Assembly: GCF_963921235.1 (NCBI RefSeq)
Contig: NC_086097.1
Location: 175,896,001 to 175,960,000, forward strand
Direction of reading: 5' to 3'
DNA from: Mobula hypostoma
Lineage: Eukaryota
Length of the DNA: 64,000 bases
The notes beneath the pieces are model-generated. The model ran no database searches, had not been told where the DNA came from, and saw only the letters and a program-made list of their open reading frames with translations. Shown here one piece after another: positions 2,811 through 60,376 of the stretch. The first letter of the stretch is position 1. Each line of letters starts with the position of its first letter. A program made the position numbers and the translations under genes.

Positions 2811-3698
2811 TTATACTGATTTATATGTCACACTGCTGGACTTGCTGATTGTCACATTTTTCTCAATTGCCTTTGTGTTGATAGGACTGTGATTCAGGGT
2901 CTCTCTCAGACCTATATCGCCTGAACCAGTGACTACCAAATTCTCCTGGGTAACAGGAACATGACCAATCACCTGCTTGGACAGCATATCATGCACCCCT
3001 TCTGATGCCAAGTTAACTGAACTTGTCACAACTGTAGTTTTGTGTGTTAATCTCTGACCAATTGGTTGGTCAGTGGCCACATGCTGTATCTCTCCCAAGC
3101 CTGCACCAGTTGACCTAGTTACCACTACATTCTTCTGGACAACAGGAGCAGCAGTGAAGGCTGGGACTGTCCCCTGGAACCCTCCTGGGCCATAACCGGC
3201 TGTGGTCGCAGTCATTGCTGGGTCAGTTGTGAGGGACACGTTCTGGTATTGGTTGTACTGTGAAGTCACAGTGCTCTGTTCATCAACAACCAGGGACTCC
3301 TCCTGACTCGGCTCGATAGTGGTAGTCACGACATAGTGCTTCTTCAGAGGTAACAGAAGGGCTCCACTGGATTGTTGATTCATAATGCTGGACGAAACAA
3401 CTTCTTTCTTCGCTATTTCCTTCTGTTGGATCAAGGGTTGAGAGCTGGTCTTCTGCTCCCACTTTGTGGAAGTAGCCACTTTGGAGACTTCTGTCATCAA
3501 CTCACCACTGCAGATTTTTGCCAACATCTTGAACTTTGGATCCAAGTCATTCAAAAAGTAGTCATCGAAAGGAGCTTCTTGAATAAGGCTGCAACAGCCC
3601 AGAGAACCCACAGGTGAGTTTGTTCCTTCACTGTTGTAAATCAGTAGATTATCATCTGAAGGCTGAGATATCCACTCTTGAGTAAGGGCATGCCTCTT
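2811..3698 (-). CDS. DSG2: Desmoglein last coding exon (ICS, linker, repeated-unit domain, terminal domain)
   Basis: ttgtag|AAG; 888 nt to TAA; KRHALTQEWISQPSDDNLLIYNSEGTNSPVGSLGCCS...KNVTISKSSSVTYKSV. Confidence 0.95.
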   Translation of the reverse strand, partial: KRHALTQEWISQPSDDNLLIYNSEGTNSPVGSLGCCSLIQEAPFDDYFLNDLDPKFKMLAKICSGELMTEVSKVATSTKWEQKTSSQPLIQQKEIAKKEVVSSSIMNQQSSGALLLPLKKHYVVTTTIEPSQEESLVVDEQSTVTSQYNQYQNVSLTTDPAMTATTAGYGPGGFQGTVPAFTAAPVVQKNVVVTRSTGAGLGEIQHVATDQPIGQRLTHKTTVVTSSVNLASEGVHDMLSKQVIGHVPVTQENLVVTGSGDIGLRETLNHSPINTKAIEKNVTISKSSSVTYKSV

Positions 3699-42600: not shown

Positions 42601-45600
42601 AATAGGTGTTTTCACTGTTAGAAGAAAGGCAGTGTGCGGGGAAAAGCAGTGCGCGAAAAAAAACAGCGCGCGATAAAAGGCAGTGCTCTCCCCCGGATTC
42701 GGAATGGCATTCTCGCCGGCATTGCTTTAACACTTGCCTGTGAGCAGCCATTAGCAAGATGAGTTCTAAAGTATCGGAAAAGCTGAAAAGAGCTCATAAG
42801 GGTGTTACACAGCGTAAAACTAGACATAATTAAGCGTTTCGATCGTGGCGAACGAAGTAAGGACAAAGTGAGTTTGGCTTGTGAAAGTTGACGAAGATGA
42901 TGTTGTAAAGGTTTTGGCATCCCATGACCTAGAACTGATAAATGAAGAGGTGATGCAATTGGAAGAGGAAAGGATAACAATTGAAATGGAATTCAGTAGC
43001 GAAAGTGAAGTCGTTCAGGAACTGAACGTGATGCAACTTTGTGAGATTTTTGCTGCAATGATAAAGTATGACTTTAATTTTGAAAGGGTACGTAGCTTTA
43101 GGGCATACTTGCAAGATGGTTTGAGTCCTTACAAAGAACTGTATGATCTAAAAATGTGCGAGGCTAAGCAGTCAAGCAAGCCTTCCACATCAGCCACAGC
43201 AGACGACAAACCTCGACCTTCGACATCGAGGCGGGCAGTCATAGGAGAAGATGAGCTGCCTACCCTGATGGATGATGAGATGACACCCCAGTGTCTCACC
43301 ACCCCAATCCCCATGCCGCAGACAGATACCAATTTGTGGAGAATGTAGCAGTAGCCGGGATGCACCCAGCACATCTTTAAGAAAAAAAGCCGAAATAAAC
43401 ATGCTAATTAATTAGGTGCCGCCCGGTTGCAGCGCCTCTGATCTGGGTCAACATTTACGTGCCAGGCAGCACCTAATTAATTAGCATGTTTATTTCGGCT
43501 TTTTTCTTAAAGATGCGCTGTGTGCCTCCCGGCCACGGTTGTACCCCTGCATGCTTCACGGATCGGTATCAGTCGGTGGCCCGGAGGGTGGGGGCCGCTG
43601 CACCACCCAAACTCCGACGACTCAGTCTAACACACCATCATCAGTGTGCTCGATGTCTTCCCGATTCCCGTGATGCTACACTGTACATACATTATTTCTA
43701 CTTTATATAGGCTGTGTATTTTTACGTGTTATTTGGTATGATTTCATAGCTGAAAGGTTACTGGAGAGAGTGTTTGTGCCAACAGTGCTTGCGTGAGATT
43801 TCCTGCCGAGAGCGCTTGCGTGAGATTTTCGCTACGGGGAACAGTGCCGGCAATGATTGTGGAAAAGTATTTCTACTTTATATAGGCTGTGTATTTATCA
43901 TATCATTCCTGCTTTCACTATATGTTACTGCTATTTTAGGTTTTATGTGTTATTTGATATGATTTGGTAGGTTATTTTTGGGTCTGTGAATGCTCACAAA
44001 ATTTTCCCATATAAATAAATGGTAATTGCTTCTTCGCTTTACGACATCCCGGCTTATGAACCATTTCATAGGAACGCTCCACCTTCGGATGGCGGGGAGA
44101 CTATCTGGAAGCTTTGGAGGGTGCGTTTGGATTGACGGGAGGTTCCTGGGAGCTTTTAGCAGAGTTTCAAAACATGCAGCAGGAAAGAGGGGAAAGCTCT
44201 CAGAATACATTTTTCGGCTGGAGATAATGCTTAGTGGGTTGCGGCACCGAGGGGTAGTGAAGACGGACGAGGTGGCGAAGTTGAGGATGAATCAGATATC
44301 TAGAGGTTCCCTGGGGGAGGACAAGGCGGCTTGGAGTCTTCGGCAGTCCTATAAACGGAGCCCCTCTCCATCGTTCGTTCAGCTGATTAGAGAGGTGCGG
44401 GAGGATGAGAGCACGTTGGGCTGGAAAGAGGGCTCTGGCCACCGGGGACAATCCTCAGCAGTACGGGAGGTGGTGGCAGGGTTGAGAATCGAGCGACCCA
44501 AGGGGTCCCAGGTGGATAGGGACCCCTCGCATGAGTAGGTTGACAAGGACAGCACCCCCTTCAGGGGACGGGCCACTCAGAGGGCTTGGAGTGGCGGCGG
44601 GTAGCATGTGCCATAACTGTGGAAAAGAGGGGCATTTCCGGCGGGAATGTGAGTGGCAGGAGGTATGCTACAGCTGTGGGGAAGAGGGACACTTCCGGAG
44701 GGATTGTGAGAGACAAGACGCCCTGCGGAGGGCAAGTCCCCGGGTGACTAAGAAGGGAGAGGTGTCGGGAATCTTAGGAGAGACTCAGTGAGGGAACGGA
44801 CTGGAGTCTCTGGAGGAACACATTCCCCAAAATCTACCATGGGACCTCCACAAGCCCAAGCCCTTATTCCAGATAGATTAGTGGGACCCTGCTCCAGCGT
44901 GTCCCTACGGATAGACGGAATCTTCGCAAGGGCCATCCTCGTCGCAAGGGTCGCAAGTCACCTTATTGTACCAGTCATTCTACAACAAACATCTAAAGCA
45001 TTTGCCCGTAACCCCGTTTAATGGCCTGGAGATTTGGGGTGTCAGTGCTGGCGATTATCCGTATGATGGGTATTTGTCAGTGAGACTGGAGTTTTCAGAA
45101 GCCGATGTGGGAGTGTCTGAAATTCTGGAAACGTTAGTGCTGGTTTGTCCGGACTCGGTTGAGGCTGGGGGGGGGTGCTTCAGTTCCGATGGGGACCAAC
45201 ACCCCTGTGGTGTGGAGGCTCATGGGGGCCTGCCAGGAAAGGGCGGGTGAGAACTTCTTGGAGACCCGGGCAGTGCTCCCAGTGTTTCGAGCTGCTTTTG
45301 AGGCAGTGTGGAGCCACCCTGGGCCAGATACTGAATGTAAGCGAGGGACTGTGTGGTGCACCCAGTCGAAGCCTAAGGTAATAAGGCCTGGGAAAGTAGC
45401 GAGGGTGATGGGAACCCCCAGATTTCCCAGTGTGCTTGATGGCGAGGCCCTTTTAGTAGACACCCCGGAAGACCTCGAGGGGGAGTCACGATTTCTGGCT
45501 GGGGTGCTGGTGAGGCCCGAAGTGCAGAGGCCCTCGGTGATACAGGCGAGCAGGATGCTGTGATTGTCAGGAACACCACGGCGAGAGAGATCACCTTTAA

Positions 45601-48600
45601 GAGAGGGATGCCCCTGGCTCATTTGCTCCCTGTGACTGTAATGTCGAGTGGCCCCGTGAGGCCTGCTGGGTGCGGGGGGAATGATTAGAAAACAGAGGGA
45701 AACTGACTGCCGAGGCCTTTAATTTTGGGGACTCGCCGGTGCCGCCGGGTTGGAAGAAAAGGCTGGTGCAGAAGATGTTGAAGCTGGAAGATGTTTTTTC
45801 CTGTGGCGAGTTCAATGTGGGTTGTTCCAAGAGCACTCGCCACACCATCCGGGTGACTGAGGACACCCCGTTCAGAGAGAGGTTGCGGCGACTGGCCCCT
45901 GCAGATATGGAAGATGTGTGCCAGCACCTGTGTAAGTTGAAGGAAGCTGGGATCAACTCTGAATCCCGAAGCCCTTATGTGTCTCCAATAGAGGTGGTCC
46001 GGAAGAAGAACAGGAAGGTACGCATATGTTTGGACTATAGGACTCTGAACTTGCGCACTGTCCCTGACCAGTATACAGTCCTGAGGGTCAAAGACGTGCA
46101 GGCCTGTCTGAGTGGGGCGAAGTGGTTTAGTGTGCTGGACCTGAGGAGTGGATACTACCAGATCCCGATGAGTGAGGCCGACAAAGAGAAGACGGCATTT
46201 ATATGCCCTCTGGGATTTTTCCAGTTCAAAAGGATGCCACAGGGCATATCAGGAACCTTTGCCATCTTCCAGAGGGTCATGGAGAAGATGGTGGGGGATA
46301 TGAATTTGCTTGAAGCGTTGGTGTATTTGGATGACTTGATAGTATTTGGATCCACCTTGTAAGAGTACAAAGCGAGGCTACAGAAGGTGCTAAGCAGACT
46401 GAAGGAGGAAGGGTTGAATCTCTCCCTGGACAAATGCCAGTTCTGCAAGACGTCTGTTAGCTATGTTGGGCACATAATCTCACTGCATGGAGTAGCTACA
46501 GACCCGGCTAAGATAGAAGCGGTGACCACGTGGCCGAGGCCCCAGACTGTGAGCACTCTGTGCTTGTCCTTGGGATTCTGTGGTTATTATCAGAGATTGG
46601 TGAAGGGCTACGCCAAAGTGAGTCACCCCTTGAACCAGCTTCAGCGTGCTTACTCCCCCCCACCCGGGGCAGAAAAGTAGAAGGGGACAGGAGACTGGAG
46701 ACTATCTCAACCCATAGGAGCCCTTTGGACAGAGGTGGGATGCAAAATGTGAGGAAGCTTTTAAATCACTGGAAGAGTTGCTGACCCAGGTACCGGTGCT
46801 GGCTTTTGCGGACCTCCGGTTACCCTATGTACTACACACCGATGCCAGCCGGGAGGGATTAGAGGCCATCTTGTATCAAGATCAGGGTGCCGGGTTGAGA
46901 CTTGTAGCGTTTGTCAGCCGGAGTTTGTTGCCCTTCACTTAGTTATATCCTGACGTCAGCGAAACTGGATGCTACGGGCCATCGGTGGTTGGCGGCCTTG
47001 TCGTCGTGATTTCAGCCTGAAGTACCGGCCGGGGAGCAGGAATGTCGATGCGGACGCTTTGTCCCGACAGGCGCATGAGGAACTGGAGAGGGACCAGGAG
47101 TGGGAGAGTGTTCCTGCATCTGGGGTGAAGGCCATGTGTCAGTTTGCTATCACTGTGAAGGCTGAGGAAAAGGAGATGCCATATTGTGCAGTGGAGCCAT
47201 TAGGAGCTTCTGACGATGCCTTGCCCCCAGTTTACTGTGACTTGACTGCTCTGAAGAGCAAACAGCTGCTGGAATTGAGTCCTGGGGAAGTGGCAGCTGC
47301 TCAGCGAGATGACCCGGGCATTGGTATCATTTGGTACGCAGTGGAAAAGGGGGATATGGCGTGGCCAGAGAAGACGAAACACGCTTCGGTGCCTCCATTA
47401 CTGAGGGAATGGCCTCGGTTGAAGTTGAGGAAACGAATTTTATACCGGGTCACATCACCCCCGGACCAACCTCAGTGTTGGCAGTTGATCCTGCCTGAGT
47501 AAGTATTGGAAGATTGCGTTGAAGTCACTACACGATGATTCTGGACATCTGGGGGTGGAGAAGACCTATGGATTGCTCAGAGACAGGTTTTACTGGCCTC
47601 GAATGAAGTCGGAGGTTGAAGAATACTGCAAGTCATGCATTTGCTGCATACGGTGGAAGACACCGCTTGTGCAGGCCGCTCCTTTGTCACACTTGCAGAG
47701 TGCAGGGTACCTGGACTTGGTGTGTATGGATTTTCTGTCCACAGAACCTGATGCCAGCAACATGGCGAATGTCTTAGTCCTCATGGATCACTACACTAGA
47801 TACGCTCAGGCTTTTCCGACTAAGGACCAGAGGGCGACTACGGTGGCAAAAGTTTTTATGAGAGAAGTATTTTGTGCATTATGGTCTTCCCCGGTGAATA
47901 CATAGTGACCAGAGACGGGACTTTGAGAGTAGGCTCATCTATGAGTTACTGGGCATGCTGGGAGTTGAGAAATCGAGGACCACGCCCTATCATCTGCAGG
48001 GCGATCCCCAGCCAGAGAGGTTTAATTGGACCTTGCTAGACATGCTCAGGACTCTAGAGCAGATGGAGCCAACATATTGGGCATCTGGTTCACTGTCACA
48101 ACTGTACACGCAATGAAGCTACTGGGTACTTGCCCTATTATCTGATGTTTGGGCGCAAGGCGAGGTTGCCCATTGACCTCTGTTTGGGGACTGACTCGGG
48201 TGACGTACAGCCGAAGCCTTATCTGAAGTATGTGTCTGATATGAGCAGAGAGCTGAAAAGGGCTTATGAGTTGGTTGGGGTGGCGGCCGCCAGGCAGAAT
48301 TGGGGAAATAAAAGGAGGTATGACCAGAAAATGAGGTTCTTCCAACTCCTGCCGGGAGACCGAGTCCTTATAAGGAATTTGGGTTTACCTGGAAAGCATA
48401 AGATGGCTGATTGCTGGGCAGCATTGCCCTATGTGGTGGAGAGTCAGATGCCAAACCTACTGATTTTCTGGGTGTGGCCCGAGGACGAGAACGGGCCTGC
48501 CAAGATTCTACATCAGAATCACCTGTTGCCCCTGGGGCAAGATGTACAGGTAGAGCAGGAACCTGACGAGGCGGCTGCACCCAATACCAGGAGTCTGTGT

Positions 48601-51600
48601 CCGTGCAGGGTGGAGGACGTGCCTACCCTGGGAGAGAAGGGCCCGGGCCCAGCCCCTGTGAGGGATACTGACTCGGAGGATGATGACTGGGATGGTTGGT
48701 ATATTCTGCCTTTCGCTGATGCTCCTGAGATGGAGGAAGAGACTTCTGGCCTTTCCCCCACTGGGTTAGACAGGGCTAGTGAGGGGCAGTCCATGGTACC
48801 CCAGGACGCTGAAGGAGAGGATGTAGGGCCTGAACCAGAGGTAGAGGGTTCTGAGGTGCAGAGGAGCTTGGGTGACCGATTGGGGGAGGATTCACCTCGT
48901 AGCTTCAAAGGGTCCCCTGTAGTGCCTGAGGTGGAAGAGTTAAAAAAGGGGGTACGTAGGGCTCAGAGAGGTTGGAACCCTCCGGAAAGGTTGACCTATG
49001 TAGCACCCGGGGAACAGGGTGTGATCTCTACTGTTTTGGGAAGTCAAGTCACTGCTTTCTGCACGTGGATTGGGCTGTGTGTTCTGCAGGAAGGGATGGC
49101 AAATTAGTTGAGCGCATGAGGGCATGACTTAATTCGGTGGGGTGAGAATGTAGGGTTCTCAGTAATATTAGATGGACTGTTACCTGTTAATTGCCTATTA
49201 CAAAATGGCTTCTCTGAAGTGTCAAAATAAAATGGTTTCTCGTACTGTTTACTGCTGAGTAAGGAGTTCTCTGTGGCAGCATGTTTGGGTTATACTTCGT
49301 GATAATGGAAATTGTATTCGTTTGCTAGCCAATGGAAGTCATGTTATGCTATCTTGTATGTGTGTGCTGAGCTGAGGATCACGGGCTTTTCGGGAGGAGA
49401 ACCGAAGAGGAAGGACGTGTTGGACGTGCTCTGGTCGACCACCATGGTTGGACCCAAGCGGCAGGTCGAGGAGGTCGGCAGGAATCGAATGGTGGAACGA
49501 AGACCCCATTAATTCAGCTCCAACGGTTGTGCACGAAGTGGTTGAACTCTGATAAGTTTGGCGCCTTTTACTTTCCTTTTATATTGTATCTCTATTAATT
49601 ACATAGTTCCAGTGAGATCTATAAAGTGTAATCTATAAATCGTACGTTGTGTGCTGTCTTGATATTTGATGTGTGAGTTTTTACCAGGTGGCGTTACACA
49701 GCAACTACGCAAAGGTGAGACATGGTTTGCCAGGCAAACGGGATTTCCCCTAGATAAACACGAGCCAATAGCCCTGAGCGTTACAAATGCAATACCCCAG
49801 ATGCAGCTAATCGGAGTTTTATAAAGCTGCAACACAACTTCACGACTCTTGAACTCAGTGCTTTGACTAACAAAGGCGAGCACGCCAAATGTCTTCTTTA
49901 CCATCCTATAAACCCGTGCAGTCACTTTCAGTGAGCTATGGACTTTTATTTCAAGATCTCTCTGTACATCAATTCTGCTAAGGGGCCTTCTATTAACTGG
50001 GTACTTTGCTTTTACATTTGATTTTCCAAAGTGCAACAACTCAAACTTGGCCAGATTAAACTCCATCTGCCCATATCTGCAACTAATCTATACCTCACTA
50101 TATATGTGGCAATCTTCTACACAATCCACAACACCAGCAGACTTTGTATTGTCTGAAAAATTGGATGAAAGCATGAATGACTTTCCCCAACCACATTTTC
50201 ATCCAAATCATGCAGAAACATGACTACACCACCTGAGAAATAAACATACAATCATGAGTTACCGTCACGCACTATTGATAAAACTGCATCAATAACCACA
50301 TTACTCTGATCTATCCGCATCGCGAAACTATTAGACAGAACAAAGATATTTGATTTATATGTACAAATCAAGGTTCTAATAAAAAACTCATACAAAGATA
50401 GAGATGAAACATCAAACGAGTTGCATTGATAAATGAAATGATTAAAAATAGATTCGTTGACTGTGAAATAAGACTCAAAGCAAGGACTGCATGAGGTTAC
50501 CCAGTGAAAGCCATTCATCTGCTTACAGCAACACACACAAATGCTGGAGGAATCCTGTCTCATTCAGCTGCATCTATGTTTGAATGATAACTAAACTTGA
50601 TTTGATTTCAATTTGAACTCAGCAAGCCAGGCAGCATCTATGGAAAAAGAGTAAATGGTTGACATTTCCGGCTGAGACCCTTCTTCAGGACTTTTCCTCT
50701 TTTCCATATACAGTATGCTGCCAGACCTGCTGAGTTCTTCCAGCACTCTGTGTGTGGTGCCTTGTAATTCCAGCATCAGCAGATTTTCACATGCTTGTGA
50801 TTCATCTGTTTATGCTGCTCAAAGTAAATCTCATAATCCTCGGAGGATGAAAAACCTGGAGAGCTAATGTGAAATTTTCAGAAATCTTCAAAAGCCTTCG
50901 GAGATTCATTGCAACTTACCGTGAAGTTTGGAGTTACTTCTCGATCCACTTTTCCTGTGATGATTAGGTTGCCAGTAAGGGAATCAATCACAAAGAGCCC
51001 AATTGGTGGCTTGTCAGCACCAGGTCCAGTAATCTTGTAGGTGATTTTAACATCAGGTAAGGAATCAAAATCCGACCTGATCTAAGGCAAAGAAAGATAG
51101 GAGAGATTATTTTACTTGTATTTTTCCATATATACACACAGTAGATTCTGGTTAATTGGGCCATTGATTAATCAGGACAGCTGCTTATTTAGGACAACGC
51201 TTAAAGAACAAAAACAAATCAAGAAAATAACTGGGATTCCCTTCATTTATTTGGGACAATACACCATATAACTGGGGCAGAAGACTTGTTGAATATTTTC
51301 CAACCAGGGTCAGTCGTGTCCATGTCTTGCGGCCATTAGACGCTACACTGTGTTTACAGCAAAACAGTTTTTAAACTGTGTCAGTTGCATGTGTTTGTGT
51401 TCAAAAAGGAGTGACTTTTGTCATTGATAGTTGGTGAAAAACAAGCAGCAGACAATTCAGAACTGTTCTGCTCACTGCAGTTTCAAGTATTCAAATGTGG
51501 AAATGCCAGAAATGAACGTGAAATGATTCCACTACCACAAGTTAGGGACTACAAAGAATTTGAAGGCATTGACAATCAGTTTGAAAGTTAAATTCGGTCC

Positions 51601-54600
51601 CTGCCAGACACTCAGCTCTTGCCTGTGGCTTCAAGTAGCTATTTGCATGTGATACTGGGCACACCCCAGTACAGGTGGGCTAAACTAGGTGAAGGTAGCC
51701 AGTGGGTCTTATACCCCAGTGAGAAAGGGATATGCCTGTCCTGTCATGTGAAATCAATCCCGGCCGACCGGACGGATGAGATCTACAGTGAAACCAAACG
51801 GCCAGGAAGGTGGTTCTGCAACGCTCTGTGGAGAGCAAAGGGAATGACAAGGCATTGAAGAAGTCATGCATCAAAAGTCATCCACTGCAACCAGGAAGAT
51901 CCCAGTTGTGATGTCTACTTGTACCACTGGACCCGGACTTCTGAGGTCAAGAGAGTGGAACTACTCCAATGCAACAGTTTATCCACTTTAAAAACTCTCC
52001 TGCGTAGGGTTCCTATTATTGTCTTATACAATGGACAACAACCAGCAGTATTGATAGTGTTCTAATTTGTTTTGCATTTCATTTAACTGCATAATTTGTC
52101 ACTCAGTTGAACAGTAGTTTGTCCTTTTATACCTACCTTTTTAACTATTTCCAAGAAGCTTTGGTTAATTGGGACAGTCACTTAATTGAGCCAAAATGTA
52201 CTGGCACCAATCTGTCCCAATTAACCGGAATCCACTGAGTATTCTTTTTATTACTCTAGATGGACAGTAGAGAGCATTCTGAATGGTCACATCAAGGTCT
52301 GGTATGGAGTCTCCAATGCCCAGGAGGCAACTCGCTCTAGGACCCTCACTATCCAGTACGTGCTCCCTTCTTGTTACTACCATCAGGGAGGAGGCAAAGG
52401 AGCCTGAAGACCCACACTCAATAATTCAAGAACAGCTTCCTCCTCTCCACTGTTAGATTTCTGAGTGATCCATGAACACCATCTTGTTAAGCCTATTTCT
52501 TGCACTATTTATTTTGTAATTTATATGAATTTTATATATTTGCATTATGATTCTGCTATAGAACAACATTCCAAATTGTGTACAAATGATAATAGATCTG
52601 ATGACCATAATCTGAACTACTTGGATGAATGCAGCTCTGACAGAGGCCAAGAAACTTGACGCAATGCTGGGCAAACACTGTGCCCGTGACAGACTGGGCA
52701 GCGTTTATCACTCTCTGCAGGTTCTGCTCGTCCAGGGCAGGGCAGCTACTATACAGGGCTGACATGCAACCTGTCAGGATACTTCCTATAGCACATCCGT
52801 AGAAGTGGGAGAGAATCCTAGTCTACAAGCCGAATCTTTTCAGACACCTTGGAAAATAAATGCACTGATACCCTTTCTTGACCACATCAGTGGAGTGATC
52901 AGGTGAGGTTGCTAGTGACATGAATTCTTTTTTCAAATTCTATTCTTCTCCAGCCCTTTATCTTTCCCACCAACCTGTCTTCATCTATCACCTTCTAGCT
53001 TGCCCTCCTTCCCCTCCCCCCCTTTTTATTCTAGCATCTTCCCCCTTCCTTTCCAGTCCTGATTTAGAGTCTCAACTTGAAATGCTGACTGTTTATTCAT
53101 TTCCATAGATGGTGCCTGACTTACTGAGTTCCTTTAACATTTTGTGTGTGTTTGCCCTGGATTTCCAGCACCTGCAGAGTCTCTTGTGTGTATACATGTA
53201 CATTACAGTGTGTGGATCAGACCTTTGGACTAAAGCACACTATAAAGGATGATGGGTATAATTGAAAACGAGAGATTCTTGACCACAGAGAGAATAGTAG
53301 CAGCAAACTTATGACTTGAAAGAGACAATTCCAAAAGGCACAGTGGTATCTGTCACAGCCAGGCCCTCTTCCTGGAGGTCAGTTGTACATCTCCAAATGG
53401 ACATTATGCTGTTACCCAAATGTATGGGTAAGAATTATGTACTTGTTTTTGTGTTTGTTATTTCTGTGGGTAGAAGCTTGTCAAACTCTTAGAAGTGATG
53501 CTGTAACTATTGCTAAATTTAGCTCTAGTGTAGTGGTTAGTGCATTGTTTTACAGCACCAGCAATCAGAGTTCAATTTGTGCTGTTGTCTCCAAACACAT
53601 TTCCACATAGGGTTCCTCCCATGTTCCAAAAATGTGCAGGTTAGTGGGCTAATTGCTCACATGGGTGTAACTGGGTGGCACAGGCTCGTAGAGCTGAAAG
53701 GGCCCGTCACCGTACTACATCTCCAAATAAAAATAAAACAAAATAAATATAATTTATTCCTACATTTGATATCCCTGAGACAATGTCAAACAATAACAAT
53801 TCTCATTTCACAGACAGTTTAGTACAGGAATTGACAAAAAGGCATGCAGGACTGGCATCATTTCAACTGCCCATACAACGGAACGGGCTCCTGAAATCGT
53901 GAGAGGAAACTGTGCTTCCATTGGCTCTCATAACAATGTGCTTGTGCTCCAAACAACATGAAATAATATTGGATTGGTACATCGCAGGGGCTTACCAGTT
54001 ACTCCTTCCCTTTCGGTTAAGCAGATGGAGATCTATACTATGAGTGAAAGCATGGAGCAGCATTGTAAAGCACTGACATGGTGCGCTGCCGATATAGCTT
54101 TGAATTGTAATGTGTTCGATTCTCTATTTCACTTTGATAAGGAGACTAGAGCTGTGACAGAAGCATGGGATTGCACTACCATAGAAATGACTCTGCCAAT
54201 ACAACCGTTTAACCATCCGACAATGGACTGCACAAACCTCGTGCTCTGAAGCTGCTTCATGAGGATGAGGATGAAGTTTGTTGTTTCAACCACCATGGGA
54301 TGGGACTATATTTAGGTTAACAGCACGTGCAATGTTTACACCACTAATAACCCTTTGAATCCTATCAATGGTACTTATTGAGGGTGCAGCTGGAGGTCTA
54401 TGATTGGCTGCAGAGGTACCCCTTTTAAAATGGAATTGCTAGCTTGAAGGAGTCCATGGAGGTGCTGTTGCTTTCTGGCCTACGTAACACCATTCATGCA
54501 CAACCTGCCTACATCCAATTGTCTGGGGCTGCTATCGAAGGTCTCAGAGGCCGAGTGTTTCTGAATTGTAGTGTTCCTGTTCTGGGGATATACCAGACCT

Positions 54601-57600
54601 GCTTGTGAGATCATCAGCATGGCCTTTGAGCTGGAAAAATTAGCTACGTTTCACAAACTAGGCCATCAATGACATTACTGCTGAAATGGTGACCCTTCAA
54701 AATCCATTAGCATTCGACTTTTGTTGGTCGAGAAGGGAGGTACTTGAGCCATAATCAGCCAGAAGTGCTGCATGTACATTCCGGATAGGACCGAGAATAT
54801 CACCAATTTAGCTGTGCATATCCAGCTAGAAACTGAAAAGGTTAGGACAAGATTGCAGGAGCTATGCAGGACTCCATTGCCACCTTAGGAATTCTTTAGT
54901 TGGCTTCTTTAGCTGGGGCAACTCAATTGTACAGTGGGCAATGGGAGCCATATTCTTCTTGGTTGTGACATTTGTTTAAAATTCTTGCCTGAGCAGCTGC
55001 CTCATACACATGGAACCCTGTTGCCCCGTTGGAAGTCCATCACGGAATTTTAGAGAGTTTGTGCTACTGAAATTTGCACTGCCCTCTACAGGACAAAAGA
55101 AAAGGGATTAAGTTTAGATAGTGTTCAGTTAGCCCAGGCACAAAAGGTCTTCTAAGAAAAGTTTTCAAGAAGAGTATAGCTCCCCTTTGGGGACAGGAGC
55201 CATTTGTCATGTGGAGACAAGGAAATAATAGAAGGATGCTAGTCACACATCTACTTTACTCACTTCAAAGTATCATCATTTGTTAGCTTGTTGTTTGAGT
55301 ATACCCAGTTTACCATAGTCAATTCTGTATGAAATAACATTCATCTGTTCAAACAAGAACAATGTAGTGATAGGGGTCATGCTCCTTGTGCCAAAGTAAA
55401 TGAAGTATAATTAATGACAATGCAAACTTTCACAGTCCAATTAATTAGCAATGCAATAGGATAAATTAATATAGTTCATTTCTCAGAGTTGGGGACGCAA
55501 GAACTAGAGGGCATAGGCTTAAGGTGAAAGGAGAGAGGTTTAAGAGGAACCTGAGGGGTAACTTCACCCAGAGGGCAGTGGGTATATGGAATGAGCTGCC
55601 AGAGAAATTGGTTGAGGCAGGTATATTAATGATATTTAAAGAGAACTTGGACAGGTACATGGATAAGAAAGGTTTACCAAACTTTGGAAAATGGGCTTGT
55701 TTAGAGGGAAATCATGGTCATCAGAGGCCAGCTGGTCTGAAGGGCCAGTTTCTGTGCTGTATGAGCCAAGAGTCCAGACTATAACATGCTCAGGAGACCA
55801 TTATGCACACAGAATTCCAGATTAAACAGGAAATTAGAAATGTGTGCAATAAAGGAACAGCAGTTATAATGGGTGACTTCAATCTACATGTAGACTGGGT
55901 GAACCAAATTGGTAAAGGTGCTGAGGAAGAGGATTTCTTGGAATGTATGCGGGATGGTTTTTTGAACCAACATGTCGAGGAACCGACTAGAGAGCAGGCT
56001 ATTCTGGACTGGGTTTTGAGCAATGAGGGAGGGTTAATTAGCGATCTTGTCGTGAGAGGACCCTTGGGTAAGAGTGACCATAATATGGTGGAATTCTTCA
56101 TTAACATGGAGAGTGACATAGTTAATTCAGAAACAAAGGTTCTGAACTTAAAGAGGGGTAACTTTGAAGGTATGAGTCGTGAATTAGCTAAGATAGACTG
56201 GCAAATGACACTTAAAGGATTGACGGTGGATATGCAATGGCAGGCATTTAAAGGTTGCATGGATGAACTACAACAATTGTTCATCCCAGTTTGGCAAAAG
56301 AATAAATCAAGGAAGGTAGTGCACCCGTGGCTGACAAGAGAAATTAGGGATAGTATCAATTCCAAAGAAGTAGCATACAAATTAGCCAGAGAAAGTGGCT
56401 CACCTGAGGACTGGGAGAAATTCAGAGTTCAGCAGAGGAGGACAAAGGGCTTAATTAGGAAGGGGAAAAAAGATTATGAGAGAAAACTGGCAGAGAACAT
56501 AAAAACGGACTGTAAAAGCTTTTATAGATATGTAAAAAGGAAAAGACTGATAAAGACAAATGTAGGTCCCCTGCAGACAGAAACAGGTGAATTGATTATG
56601 GGGAGCAAGGACATGGCAGACCAATTGAATAATTACTTTGGTTCTGTCTTCACTAAGGAGGACATAAATAATCTTCCAGAAATAGTAAGGGACAGAGGGT
56701 CCAGTGAGATGGAGGAACTGAGTGAAATACATGTTAGTAGGGAAGTGGTGTTAGGTAAATTGAAGGGATTGAAGGCAGATAAATCCCCAGGGCCAGATGG
56801 TCTGCATCCCAGAGTGCTTAAGGAAGTAGCCCAAGAAATAGTGGATGCATTAGTGATAATTTTTCAAAACTCGTTAGATTCTGGACTAGTTCCTGAGGAT
56901 TGGAGGGTGGCTAATGTAACCCCACTTTTTAAAAAAGGAGGGAGAGAGAAACCGGGGAATTATAGGCCGGTTAGCCTAACGTCGGTGGTGGGGAAACTGC
57001 TGGAGTCAGTTATCAAGGATGTGATAACAGCACATTTGGAAAGCGGTGAAATGATCGGACAAAGTCAGCATGGATTTGTGAAAGGAAAATCATGTCTGAC
57101 GAATCTCATAGAATTTTTTGAGGATGTAACTAGTAGAGTGGATAGGGGAGTACCAGTGGATGTGGTATATTTGGATTTTCAAAAGGCTTTTGACAAGGTC
57201 CCACACAGGAGATTAGTGTGCAAACTTAAAGCACACGGTATTGGGGGTAAGGTATTGGTGTGGGTGGAGAATTGGTTAGCAGACAGGAAGCAAAGAGTGG
57301 GAATAAACGGGACCTTTTCAGAATGGCAGGCGGTGACTAGTGGGGTACCGCAAGGCTCAGTGCTGGGACCCCAGTTGTTTACAATATATATTAATGACTT
57401 GGATGAGGGAACTAAATGCAGCATCTCCAAGTTTGCGGATGACACGAAGCTGGGTGGCAGTGTTAGCAGTGAGGAGGATGCTAAGAGGATGCAGGGTGAC
57501 TTGGATAGGTTGGGTGAGTGGGCAAACTCATGGCAGATGCAATTTAATGTGGATAAATGTGAAGTTATCCACTTTGGTGGCAAAAATAGGAAAACAGATT

Positions 57601-60376
57601 ATTATCTGAATGGTGGCCGATTAGGAAAAGGGGAGGTGCAACGAGACCTGGGTGTCATTATACACCAGTCATTGAAAGTGGGCATGCAGGTACAGCAGGC
57701 GGTGAAAAAGGCGAACGGTATGCTGGCATTTATAGCGAGAGGATTCGAGTACAGGAGCAGGGAGGTACTACTGCAGTTGTACAAAGCCTTGGTGAGACCA
57801 CACCTGGAGTATTGTGTGCAGTTTTGGTCCCCTAATCTGAGGAAAGACATCTTTGCCATAGAGGGAGTACAAAGAAGGTTCACCAGATTGATTCCTGGGA
57901 TGGCAGGTCTTTCATATGAAGAAAGACTGGATGAACTGGGCTTGTACTCGTTGGAATTTAGAAGATTGAGGGGGGATCTGATTGAAACGTATAAGATCCT
58001 AAAGGGATTGGACAGGCTAGATGCGGGAAGATTGTTCCCGATGTTGGGGAGGTCCAGAACGAGGGGTCACAGTTTGAGGATAGAGGGGAAGCCTTTTAGG
58101 ACCGAGATTAGGAAAAACTTCTTCACACAGAGAGTGGTGAATCTGTGGAATTCTCTGCCACAGCAAACTGTTGAGGCCAGTTCATTAGCTATGTTTAAAA
58201 GGAAGTTAGATATGGCCCTTGTGGCTACAGGGGTCAGGGGGTATGGAGGGAAGGCTGGGTTCTGAGTTGGATGATCAGCCATGATCATAATAAATGGCGG
58301 TGCAGGCTCGAAGGGCCGAATGGCCTACTCCTGCACCTATTTTCTATGTTTCTATATGCTGTTATCAATGTAATGTATAACTGAATCATAACTTTAGAAC
58401 TCTTCATTGTTAGATTTTATAGGTGTATCTGCATACCAGGCTTATTCACCAGGATACCAGGTGCCTCTGTGTCCCAGAACTCTAGAAACTCTCACATTAT
58501 CTCAATCTGCCAGGTCTTTCCCCATTCTCTTAATCTATCTTTACAAAAACTTAAGACATAGGAGACGAATAAGGCCATTCAGCCCATCAAGTCTGCACCA
58601 CATGCTTCGATTATGGCTTATTTTTCATCTCAACCCCATTCTCCTGCCTTCTCGCTGGAACCTTTGACACCCTTATTAATCAAGAACCATCAACCTCCAT
58701 TTAAAATGTGCCCTCTGACTTGGCTCCACAACTGTCTGTGGCAAAGAATTTCATATATGCACCACCTTCTGGCTAGAGAAATTTCTCCCCATTTCTGATC
58801 TAACAAGATGTCTTTGTATTCCGAGGCTGTGCCCTCTGGCTCTTAATTACCCCATTATTGGAAACAACCTCTCTGTGTCCTCTCTATCTAGTCCTTTCAA
58901 TATTCGATAGGCTTCAATGAGCTTTCCCCTCATTTTTCTAAACTCCAACAAGTACAGGCCCAGACCCATCTAATGCTGCTTATATATTCCTGAGACCATT
59001 TTCATAATCCTCTGGCCCCTCTCTAATGCCAACACATCCCTTCTTAGATATGGGGCCCAGAACTGCTCATAATATTCTAATATGTTCTGATCAATGCCTT
59101 ATAAAGTTTCCACATTACATCCTTGCCTTTATATTCTAGTCCTCTTGAAACGAATGCCTTCTTCACCACTTACTTTCAGCAACACACACAAAACACTGGA
59201 GGAATGAAATGGCTCATGCAGCATCTATGGAGGGAAAAGGGCATTCAACACTTTGGCCTGCAGCTCTTCAGCAGGACTGGAAAGATAGAGGGAAGATGGT
59301 GGGGTGGGAAGGGGTGGAGCAAGTGCTGGTAGGCGATAGCGGGATCCAGGTGAGATGGGGGGGGGGGATAATAGGCAGGTGAGGGAGGGGATGAGTGGGA
59401 ATGATGCAAGAAACTGCGGGGTGTTGGGTGAAAGTATCAAAAGGCTAAAAAAGATGAACTCTGAAAGGAGGGCATGGGATAAAAGGAATAGGGTGAGGGC
59501 AACATGGTGACTTAGTGCTGGAGGTTACTATGCCTATACCTTATCCCCAGAATTCCATTGTTTGCCAAAGGCCTGTAGCATGCCATATGAATTCCCAGGC
59601 TATTCAGGTAAGATTTACACTATTATTAGCCTGTCCTGGGGTTGCAGTGGGAGGGAGAAAAGGAGGGAAGTGTGTGAGAGTTGGAAGGAGGAAGGGGCCT
59701 TGATTTGTTATAGCATTGCTGTTGTGGATGCTTGTGTTGTTCTGGGCATGGTGGGCGTGCTTAGCTGGCACCAGAATGCGTGGTGAACTTGCTGGCTGCA
59801 CCCCCCCGCCACCCCCGGCACATCCTGGTTGCTAAAGCTAACAATACATTTCACTGTATGTTTGGATGTATATGCGAATGAGACTGCAGGCACAATTACA
59901 GTTTCTAAATTAGTGTTAGGCTAATTATGATCGAAGCATTGAGCAGTGTGGGCTTCACAGGCTGAACCAAGACAGGCTCCCCACCCTCCACTGTATGTCG
60001 ATGACAATAATGCAACAATTCCCAAACACAAGCGATTCTGCAGATGCTGGAAATCTTGAGAAATACATGCAAAATACTGCAGAAACTCAGCAAGTCAAGC
60101 AGCATCTCTGGAGGGGAATAAACAGTTGAATGCTATTGACCCCAGTCTTGAATGTTCTCAGTAATAAACCAATTCCAATTCTGATCATCTGCTCTCTGGA
60201 TGCATGTCTACACAATGTGGGTCAAACTACTGATATCAACCTACAATGGCAATGGGATTATTGCTTGGGGGCTCATTTTCTCGAACATCGATAGGCGGAG
60301 AGATCCATTCTCGCTTCTGGCGGTGGGAGGTCCTCCTGGTTGGAAATCGGATGACTTGGATTCCTCTCCTTTCAGC
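2811..60376 (-). CDS. DSG2: Desmoglein (DSG2-like desmosomal cadherin), 13 coding exons (equivalent to exons 3-15); 5' exons outside the window
   Basis: Hand-spliced exons give one open frame of 3087 nt: short propeptide with furin site RQKR|EWISPP (Trp2), EC1-EC4 with DRE/DxNDN/DxD Ca2+ motifs, EC5/anchor, TM, juxtamembrane CxC, ICS (LLIYNSEG..SPVGSLGCCS..FLNDLDPKFKMLAKIC) and NVVVT-type repeat tail. Intron phases 0,0,1,0,0,0,2,1,1,1,0,0 match the desmoglein pattern as I recall it. The family call is solid; orthology to DSG2 specifically is not proven. Confidence 0.9.
4389..5063 (+). mobile_element. Tigger-type non-autonomous DNA transposon, right half only (same family as 42520-44101)
   Basis: Colinear with 43430-44101; ends in TIR ...ggcgggggaaacctg followed by TA; embedded in a Penelope-like remnant (EQHLIFRL codons at ~4363-4386). 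Confidence 0.85.
7446..7745 (-). CDS. DSG2: Desmoglein exon 14 (intracellular region, ICS start)
   Basis: ttacag|CTG...CGG|gtatgt; 300 nt open; ends MLSGASRSFVKQYINR, comparable to the desmoglein 'FL.xYF.xK' motif. Confidence 0.82.
9721..9857 (-). CDS. DSG2: Desmoglein exon 13 (TM end, juxtamembrane region); absent from the ORF track
   Basis: ttctag|TT...ACG|gtttgt; 137 nt; LPLLLLFCKCGSGFGGKNSFILEERNRVDGTLGQSSIEGGGQVDT; phase 1 to 0 fits both neighbours. Confidence 0.9.
10490..13050 (-). mobile_element. Decayed CR1 LINE (endonuclease to RT to 3' end)
   Basis: Minus-strand ORFs carry CR1 ORF2 motifs: [48 protein letters not shown]. Confidence 0.9.
12519..12722 (+). mobile_element. tRNA-derived SINE inserted in the CR1
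   Basis: A-box-like tggtgtagtg, B-box gttcgaatcc, (TTC)n tail, imperfect TSD aatagtgata/aataatgaca; the CR1 resumes on both sides. Confidence 0.75.
14789..15019 (-). CDS. DSG2: Desmoglein exon 12 (anchor and transmembrane helix)
   Basis: ttaaag|CG...C|gtaagt; 231 nt; TSMRLVPLKHLWPGVFSVPVWIEDADSKGHTVTLDVHVTDCYTIDHCSSDRLIQSKVELGGSAVALIILSLLLLLL. Confidence 0.94.
15120..15570 (+). repeat. G-rich low-complexity tract
   Basis: Dense GGG/GGGG runs with imperfect ggggtaggtgggg(t)gcc.aggg units. Confidence 0.75.
16181..16393 (-). CDS. DSG2: Desmoglein exon 11 (EC4 end, EC5/anchor)
   Basis: ctacag|GA...G|gtaaga; 213 nt; GSSDTTTGTIVINVEDINDHVPKFTNPQPCMCSQAEYLNVTANDADGAPFGAPFHFNIQSNQMWKLGQTD. Confidence 0.95.
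16796..17628 (+). mobile_element. Solo LTR (833 bp)
   Basis: TG...CA termini (tgtcatgtg / tacgtaaca), 4-bp TSD ATTG on both sides, TATA-like gggataaaagg (~16994), internal 21-bp duplication gaagacatcaaaaggtctgcc. Confidence 0.8.
18992..19137 (-). CDS. DSG2: Desmoglein exon 10 (EC4)
   Basis: caacag|G...C|gtgagt; 146 nt after an 86-nt intron; YAKDRDMANWLSIDSQTGKVTIDGVIDRESEYVIDGKYTATVLAISNE. Confidence 0.95.
19224..19486 (-). CDS. DSG2: Desmoglein exon 9 (EC3 end, EC4 start)
   Basis: acccag|GAG...AA|gtaagt; 263 nt; ELDFEEMEQIHLVIRLSNKAPYHH...VKNVAEGIVFKPS...IGIYPAVSADTGQPLEMT. Confidence 0.95.
19616..20668 (+). mobile_element. 5'-truncated CR1 LINE (RT C-terminal half and 3' UTR)
   Basis: [34 protein letters not shown]; one frameshift near 20110; tail (tcttatgg)n. 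Confidence 0.93.
21423..21503. mobile_element. Short hAT-like MITE
   Basis: Inverted termini cagaggttcccaa / ttgggaaccctg; no clean 8-bp TSD. Confidence 0.45.
21714..22223 (-). mobile_element. 5'-truncated L1-type LINE (ORF2 C-terminus and 3' UTR)
   Basis: Minus strand reads ELNAPTTFFWFSQTILCLNLEKIRSNLYDSSFKFEQIWGPFIRYFHLM*, then AATAAA and a (GAAA)n tail; exact 13-bp TSD ctgatgttttttc at 21701 and 22224. Confidence 0.85.
22260..22950 (+). mobile_element. Rex1/Babar-type LINE 3' fragment
   Basis: SFKFLGV, KKARQRLYF, HPGHALFSLLPSGRRYRSL, NSFFPSAIR; tail gataataaacctgattctgat; closely similar to 61700-62379. Confidence 0.8.
23928..24113 (-). CDS. DSG2: Desmoglein exon 8 (EC3)
   Basis: cttcag|TAT...AAG|gtaagg; 186 nt; YEVTVEENVLASEILRMEVQDRDLEFTDNWLAHFDIIEGNEQEHFKIEVDNRTNVGILNLQK. 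The DxDxEFTDNWLA motif is typical of desmogleins. Confidence 0.96.
25292..25687 (+). mobile_element. CR1 LINE 3' end
   Basis: MRGDLIETYKIIKG...RTRGHSLRI...FTQRVV; tail ctattgtctattg; near-TSD gaatgagatg/gaatgatatg. Confidence 0.88.
29485..29667. mobile_element. 183-bp Penelope-derived palindromic insertion inside the CR1
   Basis: Exact 14-bp TSD attatctgaatggt (29471-29484, 29668-29681); absent from the sister CR1 at ~57601; inverted repeat 29565-29669 with 52-bp arms. Confidence 0.88.
29616..29652 (+). ncRNA. Minimal type I hammerhead ribozyme motif (Penelope pLTR type)
   Basis: CTGACGA (29620-26), short stem II, GAAAC-GTC (29640-47), gactg; mirrored copy on the minus strand at 29583-29619 (agtc-CTGACAA-agggtctcggcct-GAAAC-GTC-gact). 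Activity untested. Confidence 0.65.
31038..31172 (-). CDS. DSG2: Desmoglein exon 7 (EC2 end)
   Basis: atgaag|ACG...ACG|gtaagc; 135 nt; TKDLYSLRIEARDLGGNINGLHATTTVRIKILDVNDNIPSLEKTT. Confidence 0.93.
31481..32195 (+). mobile_element. Rex1/Babar-type LINE 3' fragment
   Basis: TKEVVMDFRK, YKCLGVHLDNRLEWS, LYFLMRLRPF; ends gggatcaataaagtatctgtct. Confidence 0.75.
34735..34883 (-). CDS. DSG2: Desmoglein exon 6 (EC2)
   Basis: ccccag|GT...GAG|gttagt; 149 nt; (G)TAALTIRATDKDIGENGMISYSIIDIHKKIFAVSSDGVVQVMDPKLDRE. Confidence 0.93.
35271..35525 (+). mobile_element. L1-like 3' UTR fragment inserted in a CR1 remnant
   Basis: T-rich sequence ending aataaaaagatttgaaaacaaagaga, the same terminus as the L1 at 21714-22223. 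Confidence 0.5.
37061..37205 (-). CDS. DSG2: Desmoglein exon 5 (EC1 end with CAR site, EC2 start)
   Basis: tctcag|ATT...G|gtgagt; 145 nt; IIGHAYDQFGVQKETPIDLFIKVLDVNDNPPEFNQTVFEGSVEELSLT. Confidence 0.95.
37660..38080 (+). mobile_element. Rex1/Babar-type LINE RT fragment
   Basis: EWCHNNNLSVNVNKTKLIIDFR; KKAQQHLYFL...TLTNFYRCVV. Confidence 0.75.
38851..39771. mobile_element. Tigger/pogo-type non-autonomous DNA transposon (921 bp)
   Basis: TIRs caggttgagtaccc / ggggtgctcaacctg, flanked by TA on both sides; contains a short CR1 piece at ~39220-39310. Confidence 0.88.
41069..41705 (+). repeat. Gypsy 5' LTR
   Basis: tgtagggctctcagtaatattag...gccctgagcattaca; direct repeat of 49149-49785. Confidence 0.95.
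42520..44101 (+). mobile_element. Internally deleted Tigger (pogo-like) DNA transposon nested in the Gypsy gag
   Basis: TA TSD (42518-19, 44102-03); imperfect TIRs caggtgtccccagcttttcgaa / ttcggatggcggggagac; transposase N-terminal HTH piece (VKLDIIKRFDRGERSKDKV) fused to a C-terminal piece (DDVVKVLASHDLELINEEVMQLEEE...YDFNFER...YKELYD). Confidence 0.9.
43355..43532. repeat. Inverted repeat (hairpin) with ~70-bp arms inside the Tigger element
   Basis: ccgggatgcacccagcacatctttaagaaaaaaagccgaaataaacatgctaattaattaggtgc (from 43355) versus gcacctaattaattagcatgtttatttcggcttttttcttaaagatgcgctgtgtgcctcccgg (to 43532). Confidence 0.92.
44788..49107 (+). pseudogene. Gypsy pol (protease, RT, RNase H, integrase), disrupted
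   Basis: RICLDYRTLN, FSVLDLRSGYYQI, MPQG, VYLDDLIVF, LHTDAS, HDDSGHLG..YWPRM..C..C, LVCMDFL, DHYTRYA, PYYLMFGRKARLPID; many stops and frameshifts plus an RNase H deletion near 46935. Confidence 0.93.
49149..49785 (+). repeat. Gypsy 3' LTR
   Basis: tgtagggttctcagtaatattag...gccctgagcgttaca. Confidence 0.95.
50920..51081 (-). CDS. DSG2: Desmoglein exon 4 (EC1)
   Basis: ccttag|ATC...ACG|gtaagt; 162 nt; IRSDFDSLPDVKITYKITGPGADKPPIGLFVIDSLTGNLIITGKVDREVTPNFT. Confidence 0.95.
51139..52237. mobile_element. Tigger-like MITE with an internal insertion
   Basis: TIRs cagtagattctggttaattggg / cccaattaaccggaatccactg; starts about 57 bp from the exon 4 acceptor; TA TSDs eroded. Confidence 0.8.
51592..52047 (+). 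mobile_element. Possible RTE 5'-UTR-derived non-autonomous element
   Basis: Compositionally distinct block; ctcttgcctgtggct...cacacccc...gggctaaactaggtgaagg resembles vertebrate RTE 5' ends from memory; ends in caacaacca. Confidence 0.4.
53230..54090 (+). pseudogene. Endogenous retrovirus integrase relic (split by a SINE)
   Basis: VVHLQMDIMLLPKCMGKNYVLVFV (from 53382), WVEACQTLRSDAVTIAKF (53467-53520), FDIPETMSNNNNSHFTDSLVQELTK (from 53765), NCPY, QRNGLLKS, VLPLALITM, HEIIL, in retroviral integrase order. Confidence 0.8.
53525..53755 (+). mobile_element. tRNA-derived V-SINE-like element inserted in the ERV integrase
   Basis: tagtgtagtggttagtgc A-box, gagttcaatt B-box-like, ggttcctcccatgttccaaaaatgtgcaggttag V-domain-like, A-rich tail. 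Related copies at 32440-32700 (-), 33555-33720 and 36360-36480. Confidence 0.6.
54090..55107 (+). pseudogene. Endogenous retrovirus env relic (gamma-type TM subunit)
   Basis: PINGTY*GC, WRCCCFLAYVTP, IISMAFELEKLA, ITAEMVTLQNPLAFD/LLVEKGGT*AIISQKCCMYIPDRTENITNLA (ISD plus CX6CC, first Cys read as TGA), hydrophobic SWGNSIVQWAMGAIFFLVVTFV, then a purine tract aaaagaaaaggga (55095-55107). Confidence 0.85.
55821..58355 (+). mobile_element. Young 5'-truncated CR1 LINE with an uninterrupted ORF2 frame
   Basis: ORF 55803-58265 (820 aa) with endonuclease C-half and a complete RT, no stops; tail tattttctatgtttctat; same subfamily as 27211-30428. Confidence 0.96.
58550..59170 (-). mobile_element. Decayed CR1 3' end
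   Basis: Reverse complement of CR1 3' sequence similar to 10490-11150. Confidence 0.75.
60245..60376 (-). CDS. DSG2: Desmoglein exon 3: propeptide, furin site, mature N-terminus
   Basis: ttttcacag|GCT...ATT|gtaggt; 132 nt; AERRGIQVIRFPTRRTSHRQKREWISPPIDVRENEPPSNNPIAI. Confidence 0.93.

Follow-up and report, generated by a model that had tools for sequence, protein, structure and literature searches.

The window analysed here is a stretch of 64,000 nucleotides (nt) from Mobula hypostoma (contig NC_086097.1, positions 175,896,001 to 175,960,000; coordinates below count from its first letter). It carries a desmoglein gene on its minus strand, and one intron of that gene holds, on the plus strand and hence antisense to the gene, the broken integrase and envelope (Env) genes of a retrovirus. 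The two exons bordering this intron, 132 nt and 162 nt long, have canonical splice sites, which places the relic antisense within intron 51082-60244, a stretch of 9,163 nt (9.2 kb), at about 2.1 kb from the acceptor. A first-pass annotation had described the locus as an endogenous retrovirus (ERV) relic in desmoglein intron 3: that it lies in a desmoglein intron is upheld by the splice sites and a Cadherin match, whereas the number 3, for an intron between exons 3 and 4, is an assumption that follows human DSG exon structure. The parts of the relic, its flanks and the exons around it are the following.

53222-53333, plus strand: probable remnant of the N-terminal (zinc-binding) region of the integrase at the 5' end of the relic, read by eye and beyond the reach of the profile; related copies raise contig depth from 53234 (129 against about 8 for single-copy sequence).
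53334-53520, plus strand: part 1 of the integrase catalytic core (HLQMD, WVEA), with one frameshift; profile blocks of 35.8 and 22.5 bits over reference residues 58-120 of 336.
53521-53752, plus strand: insert resembling a short interspersed nuclear element (SINE) that splits the integrase, with tRNA-like A and B boxes and an A-rich tail; contig depth up to 8,789 against about 8.
53753-54078, plus strand: part 2 of the integrase core and the linker; profile blocks up to reference residue 254 of 336.
54100-54234, plus strand: likely N-terminal stub of the Env surface subunit (SU), a CXXC region whose first Cys is lost.
54319-55012, plus strand: Env, comprising the C-terminal SU, a degenerate cleavage site, a heptad region, the immunosuppressive domain (ISD), CX6CC and a transmembrane (TM) segment, with several stops and frameshifts.
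54689-54741, plus strand: ISD, in profile blocks of 21.6 and 65.3 bits split by one frameshift and a short deletion.
55095-55107, plus strand: purine tract of 13 nt at the place expected of a polypurine tract, supported by its position and not by its composition.
55108-55361, plus strand: candidate remnant of a 3' long terminal repeat (LTR), which lacks a TG start and has AATAAC at 55333 and CA at 55360-55361.
52933-53189, no strand assigned: 5' flank, a very high-copy repeat at the truncation point, with many copies in the window and contig depth above 100,000.
55470-55780, plus strand: 3' flank, a fragment of a CR1-type long interspersed nuclear element (LINE), known from the open reading frame (ORF) 55470-55784 and from repeats; contig record 23 of sequencing run X12 spans 55334-55674.
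60245-60376, minus strand: desmoglein exon of 132 nt encoding RQKREW..NPIAI (RQKREW being the start of the mature protein), with canonical splice sites; upstream border of the intron.
50920-51081, minus strand: desmoglein exon of 162 nt encoding cadherin EC1 (Pfam Cadherin, E 6e-4), with canonical splice sites; downstream border of the intron.
2811-3698, minus strand: last desmoglein exon, with PF01049 and four short (N/H)xVVT-like repeats.

Is such a battered stretch more than chance? Three-frame translation of the plus strand recovers, in order, every motif that the first-pass annotation had named: HLQMD at 53388, WVEA at about 53470, FDIPET..SHFT at 53765-53812, CPY at 53868, RNGLLK at 53879, LPLAL at 53915 and HEII at 53957 for the integrase, then, for Env, NGTY followed by a stop at about 54367, an ISD-like LQNPLAFD/LLVEKGG across a frameshift at 54695-54741, CX6CC at 54745-54771 (the spacing and CC are present, and a stop codon occupies the position of the first Cys), a hydrophobic segment at 54917-54976 and the 13-nt purine run at 55095-55107. 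A frameshift-aware profile of class I-like integrases scored the relic at 80.9 bits, against 15.6 ± 1.9 bits (maximum 20.7) in 100 shuffles. With a Gypsy LTR retrotransposon of the window, 3.5 kb from the relic, serving as control for the integrase and reverse transcriptase (RT) profiles, the next-best tile outside that element reached 23.2 bits (134 tiles). For Env, a frameshift-aware profile built from 16 homologues gave 153.5 bits against 17.3 ± 2.4 in 60 shuffles.

Several conventional searches weigh against this reading. Pfam matched no rve, TLV_coat or MLVIN_C in the six full frames or when the relic was scanned as nine sub-pieces; word-index searches for homologues, which drew 137 candidates with the env frame and 28 with an integrase piece, left none scored; phmmer of two integrase pieces against PDB returned nothing relevant; and tblastn of the integrase with single proteins was weak (best E 0.004). 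The HMMER check proposed with the first-pass annotation, using rve and TLV_coat models, thus came out negative on single frames and positive only by way of homologues and frameshift-aware scoring, and relics of this kind escape single-frame Pfam scans completely. Among viral contigs there were 24 pattern matches, none of them confirmed, and Rfam and tRNA scans of the window gave no match. To the extent that contigs can tell, the breaks themselves do not come from misassembly: 53165-55531 is covered, without a single difference and at a depth of 7-9.5, by five tiling contigs of run X1, possibly the sample from which the window itself derives. The relic is real, the broken integrase and env of a retrovirus, and more than chance.

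The Env portion has the clearer relatives. A phmmer search of the full library with the main env frame (54043-54876, stops written as X) returned 35 proteins at E<=1e-3, the best at 7.6e-15, and 32 of them carry TLV_coat (PF00429). Twenty matches were looked up, and the 14 that are named comprise 10 from sharks and rays (Pristis, Carcharodon, Stegostoma twice, Hemitrygon, Heterodontus, Pristiophorus, Hypanus and Scyliorhinus twice) and 4 from bony fish; 11 bear ERV Env-like or syncytin-like names, 2 are called 'Envelope protein' and 1 is uncharacterized. The nearest named relatives are shark and ray proteins labelled 'ERV group PABLB member 1 Env polyprotein-like', which share the same SU-end and TM motifs (identity over 122-123 columns is 48% for XP_067885108.1 of Heterodontus, 43% for XP_051893589.1 of Pristis and 42% for XP_059826944.1 of Hypanus). 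These proteins are open frames at other loci, in contrast to the broken relic, and their names reflect automatic annotation and not membership of the human group. When the TM piece was compared with PDB, Syncytin-1 matched best (E 0.02), followed by filovirus GP2 chains, the relatives expected of a gamma-type Env. The membrane anchor lies at 54917-54976 and the basic cleavage site is degenerate. Upstream, the stub at 54100-54234 aligns to the N-terminal CWVC region of three of nine homologues at p<0.05 (post hoc pairwise p 0.001, 0.014 and 0.041) and is not significant by profile alone (14.1 against a null of 14.3); the middle of SU, 3' of the stub, is deleted. In the Env tree, 19 of 27 inner branches are open, the bootstrap had not settled, and the relic has no supported sister.

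With its ISD and CX6CC, the relic would carry an Env of gamma type. The first-pass annotation had taken these two hallmarks to define the gamma-type Env of class I retroviruses; they do mark gamma-type Env, but they do not mark class I. According to Chen et al. (10.1101/2021.11.23.469661), ISD and CX6CC also occur in alpha-, delta- and D-type betaretroviruses and, in fishes and amphibians, together with class III Pol resembling that of snakehead retrovirus (SnRV), and the class III XtERV-S carries a class I-like TM (PMC8278194). Because the two hallmarks reach beyond class I, the class assignment of the relic stands on its integrase alone.

References for that assignment were gathered by way of Env: an Env alignment led to six metagenome loci, and the integrase of one of them, L001, to 120 Pol proteins, which a redundancy filter reduced to 49 class I-like and 15 Gypsy-type rows, 36 of these entering approximately unbiased (AU) tests. 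Maximum-likelihood (ML) trees of 66 and 38 rows were built from 167 columns. The relic scores 80.9 bits with the class I-like profile (49 rows) and 30.1 with the Gypsy-type profile (15 rows), and the control reverses this, since the integrase of the window's Gypsy element, which is in neither profile, scores 149.0 and 238.8 bits, respectively. In the trees the relic lies inside the class I-like clade with ultrafast bootstrap (UFBoot) support of 100 (66 rows) and 99/97 (38 rows), on a long branch and without a resolved sister. AU tests reject its union with the window's Gypsy element (p 0.012; 0.035 with P0146 added) and with three placental gamma rows (p 0.011). The xLx[MILV]D[FYL] motif, which in the relic reads HLQMD and then I, is carried by 26 of the 49 class I-like rows and by a single one of 15 Gypsy-type rows; all 11 mammalian gamma-type rows lack it. 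The relic reaches its top identities, 31-35%, exclusively with class I-like rows that are either from fishes or unnamed, against 23-24% with the P0138 group. The first-pass annotation had offered grouping with Gypsy elements as the test of its reading, and the integrase was placed as class I-like instead, with the AU tests decisive only in part.

What speaks against this placement deserves equal space. The integrase tree had only 132 relic residues to work with, on an end branch of 1.45. Groupings that survive the AU test join the relic to all Gypsy-type rows (p 0.33), strict Gypsy (p 0.135), P0138/P0139/P0145 (p 0.136) or gamma plus a wombat row (p 0.44). The reference set grew from a fish ERV query, and named epsilonretroviruses, SnRV and ERV-L are not among its rows. 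Labels at its edges are uncertain as well, in that the Gypsy-type P0133, P0138, P0139 and P0145 carry a retrovirus-like RNase H and the class I-like P0135 groups with them; these five form a well-supported Pol group, two of them named from fishes, that is sister to the class I-like clade. On balance, the case that the integrase is retroviral and class I-like, not of Gypsy type and outside the mammalian gammaretroviruses, looks good but is not closed, because RT, the classifying gene, is absent and the references contain no named epsilonretrovirus or class III virus.

Two other origins have to be weighed against these numbers. The Pol could instead belong to class III, resembling SnRV or ERV-L, or to some other deep branch of the retroviruses, with the gamma-type Env gained by recombination. 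Such recombinants are known in fishes and frogs (10.1101/2021.11.23.469661; PMC8278194), and the AU tests leave room both for a basal place (p 0.33) and for the P0138 group (p 0.136) in a reference set without a named class III virus; set against the position of the relic inside the class I-like clade in both ML trees, the gap in identity between class I-like rows and the P0138 group, and the HLQMD-type motif in 26 of 49 class I-like rows, we consider this origin improbable. Far harder to credit is that a piece of Gypsy integrase happens to lie beside an env piece of unrelated origin, or that the two form a Gypsy element with a captured env. A Gypsy element does lie only 3.5 kb away, and AU allows strict Gypsy with the relic (p 0.135), but the profiles separate at 81 against 30 bits, kinship with the local Gypsy element is rejected (p 0.012), and integrase, env and purine tract succeed one another along a single strand as they do in a retrovirus, all within 1.9 kb. 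The Gypsy element itself occupies 41069-49790 (plus strand) in the next desmoglein intron, with LTRs of about 720 nt that are 85-96% alike and a broken pol; inside it lie a 44-nt near-perfect inverted repeat (43383-43505) and an unrelated ORF (42872-43348), possibly a nested piece of a DNA transposon.

The retroviral class I-like integrase that we prefer is itself incomplete. The first catalytic Asp is kept, the second position is Asn, and the Glu falls inside a deletion. The profile match stops at residue 254 of 336, and Pfam finds no C-terminal domain of the murine leukaemia virus (MLV) type (PF18697, about 80 amino acids), which we read as deleted; a candidate for its W.GPY motif at 53975-54075 was rejected, the profile placing that stretch in the linker at residues 224-254. 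Around the SINE-like insert (53521-53752) no clear target-site duplication was found.

Much of a provirus is missing altogether. The first-pass annotation had seen no RT, and indeed the searches found no trace of RT or RNase H in the window other than that of the Gypsy element: the best intron tile scores 23.6 bits, a background level, against 226.6 for Gypsy (84 tiles), and tblastn of the 120 Pol proteins against the window at E<1e-3 matches only the Gypsy element and two places near 15 kb. Gag was probed only through the few gag-bearing proteins among those 120 queries, with no dedicated gag profile. We read the absence of RT and RNase H as loss by truncation, which lowers the case for a complete provirus and not that for a relic. 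At the other end, the window has 36 runs of 13 or more purines on its plus strand, so that a purine run alone is not significant. Within the proposed LTR, 55250-55361 is the only multi-copy bin (depth 352 against about 8, and 93-352 across all four runs), and the neighbouring 55138-55249 and 55362-55473 are near single-copy; the bin is either a conserved LTR end or a small repeat of another kind. The stretch 55108-55470 does not recur within the window, and the 5' end of the provirus is absent. An LTR ending near 55361 is possible, and an end nearer 55361 is more likely than the 55430 that had been proposed. Farther along, a CR1-type LINE ORF2 with an open frame of 826 amino acids lies at 55785-58265 (plus strand; RVT_1, E 7.5e-33), antisense in the same intron as the relic, and a broken near-copy of that ORF2 lies at about 27190-30017.

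Were these deletions made after insertion, or had they been inherited? They could already have been present in a non-autonomous master copy spread by enzymes acting in trans. Related copies do exist, since parts of integrase and env reach 5-20 times the single-copy level in summed contig depth in each of the four runs compared (a value that is not a copy number), organisms C and E have the same deleted layout, and a fish ERV (L001) without protease and most of RT nevertheless keeps open Pol-remnant and env frames. The bins at 53794-54017 are nonetheless near single-copy depth in four of four runs, the paralogous X1 record 5 (1282 nt) aligns with no more than 54235-54433, at about 81%, near-identical copies with these deletions are not in evidence, and a shared layout is expected from orthology alone, all of which leaves a deleted master copy rather unlikely and loss after insertion preferred. 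L001:2690-7676, a fish-type ERV in a metagenome contig, merits description in its own right: a frame of 1049 amino acids runs from an unannotated N-terminal region to RT-connection, RNase H and integrase and is followed by an env frame of 427 amino acids. With no protease or RVT_1 match in the longer frame, it looks like an internally deleted, non-autonomous element. It sets a class I-type RNase H-integrase with MLVIN_C beside env, and L003 has the same TM stretch.

The locus extends beyond one species. Among 20 listed runs of nine organisms (labelled by letter) that hold some of the stretch, contigs of four runs were compared, of which the longest records were shown. The integrase-SINE junction is bridged, with at least 31 letters on each side, by X5 record 28 (organism B) and X12 record 21 (organism E), the latter running on to 54582 in one contig, and the junction of the tail with CR1 is bridged in organism E by X12 record 23. 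Because these junctions are common to other organisms, the ERV is older than the SINE and the SINE older than the split of organisms A and E. The core of the first-pass interpretation, an old, deletion-riddled class I provirus predating the SINE, is accordingly sustained by the class I-like trees, the deletions and the shared SINE junction. A further contig, env-like and paralogous, is identical in organisms A and B (X1 record 5, X5 record 29) and about 81% alike to the relic over 54235-54433 (37 differences, 3 gaps), which suggests a second shared insertion of the same family.

Divergence within the relic equals that of the flanking intron, and its decay thus looks neutral: organism E differs at 72/1113 positions (6.5%) in the relic and 30/401 (7.5%) in the flank (Fisher p 0.49), and organism C at 79/1688 (4.7%) and 29/556 (5.2%), respectively (p 0.65). 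These counts leave out the X12 SINE segment (28/205), X10 record 11 (24/134, paralogue-like) and X10 record 16 (CR1), and X10 records overlap by 25-29 nt. The ERV-plus-SINE stretch of organism B goes the other way, differing more than its flank (18/515 against 10/522). Organism C, with a collinear match of 94-98%, has no shown contig bridging a unique junction. The divergence figures bear on whether desmoglein has recruited the relic as a regulatory element or non-coding RNA. In favour of such a role, several species have retained the relic within an intron of a gene of epithelia, and 53894-54266 is less diverged in organism C (9/373), but that stretch is one of five records and does not recur in organism E, overall divergence equals the flank, there is no open frame and Rfam gives no match; we give such a role very little credence. 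Nor does env resemble a co-opted gene of the syncytin or percomORF type, given its stops and frameshifts and a divergence equal to the flank. Instead of any of these roles, the relic likely makes no protein and does nothing now.

A corrected distance of 0.068 translates into 34 million years (My) at 1e-9 per site per year and 154 My at 2.2e-10, the rate assumed by Han (PMC4422223); converted to years, the per-generation rates in PMC9826928 amount to about 1.6e-10 to 1.1e-9. The insertion is therefore likely to have a minimum age of tens of My, roughly 30-150 My by this estimate from sequence distances. That it is orthologous across several ray or shark genera, and so among the older directly datable retroviral integrations of cartilaginous fishes (>50 My), is a tentative proposal that we regard as doubtful for now.

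How does the relic compare with what has been described? In 37 species of fishes and amphibians, Chen et al. (10.1101/2021.11.23.469661) counted 25,498 ERVs with gamma-type Env, whose Pol is epsilon-related, gamma-related or class III; 6 of the species are cartilaginous fishes, 3 of them with >500 copies. These figures, and the 10 of 14 named Env relatives that come from sharks or rays, overturn the initial premise that few ERVs are described from cartilaginous fishes; ERV screens elsewhere took in 13, 12 and 3 cartilaginous genomes (PMC10435555, PMC10699275, PMC6001957). The epsilon-related class I ERVs with gamma-type Env in that catalogue resemble the relic in having a class I-like integrase followed by an Env with ISD, CX6CC, heptad region and TM, and differ from it in that the relic lacks gag, protease, RT and both intact LTRs, which precludes its placement in their Pol or Env clades. 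In the elephant shark, CmiERV lineages II and III cluster with epsilonretroviruses and have env, lineage II being dated to 54.5 My by LTR divergence (Han 2015, PMC4422223); the likeness is drawn from their description, and CmiERVs, unlike the relic, include near-complete proviruses. The exogenous epsilonretroviruses, which lack gamma-type Env where many fish ERVs have it (PMC9967133), include walleye dermal sarcoma virus (WDSV) and walleye epidermal hyperplasia virus (WEHV), Pol relatives of many fish class I ERVs. Their Env is described without gamma-type hallmarks and accessory genes are present (PMC9967133; 10.1101/2021.11.23.469661), differences that place the relic outside the genus. A literature search for an ERV in a shark desmoglein intron or for orthologous stingray ERVs found no description of this locus in the library searched, and for orthology in general the catalogue of Chen et al. 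lists 46 undated orthologous ERV groups within one genus, Chiloscyllium. The relic is likely one more decayed member of a common ERV type of which thousands of copies have been recorded in fishes and amphibians, and it matters little by itself.

Taking together what is observed directly, namely the similarity to integrase and Env, their order, strand and breaks, the SINE, the junctions in other species and a divergence equal to the flank, we are confident in the following account. In antisense orientation, the desmoglein intron very probably holds the broken 3' part of a provirus, comprising integrase, env and purine tract. The provirus was likely of the epsilon-related class I type of fishes, with a gamma-type Env, and the relic is likely inert and drifting neutrally. 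Its history would have begun with infection of the germ line and integration of such a virus, followed by fixation, likely tolerated since antisense intronic copies would interfere less with splicing and polyadenylation; among the intronic ERVs that survive in human genes, the antisense orientation is favoured (PMC1794541). The 5' LTR, gag, protease, RT and RNase H would then have been lost, likely at the repeat ending at 53189, as would the C-terminus of the integrase and the middle of SU, after which the SINE would have inserted into the integrase. Organisms A, B, E and probably C would have split later, leaving the relic to neutral decay through several speciations.

The use of this locus lies in its value as a dated marker. 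Its nested junctions, first the ERV, then the SINE, together with the CR1 flank, offer a presence/absence character for host phylogeny, and where they are shared they also give a minimum age for the retroviral lineage of the relic. If the insertion is indeed orthologous across several ray or shark genera, it would set a minimum age, calibrated on the hosts, for an epsilon-related lineage that is as yet undescribed and has a gamma-type Env.

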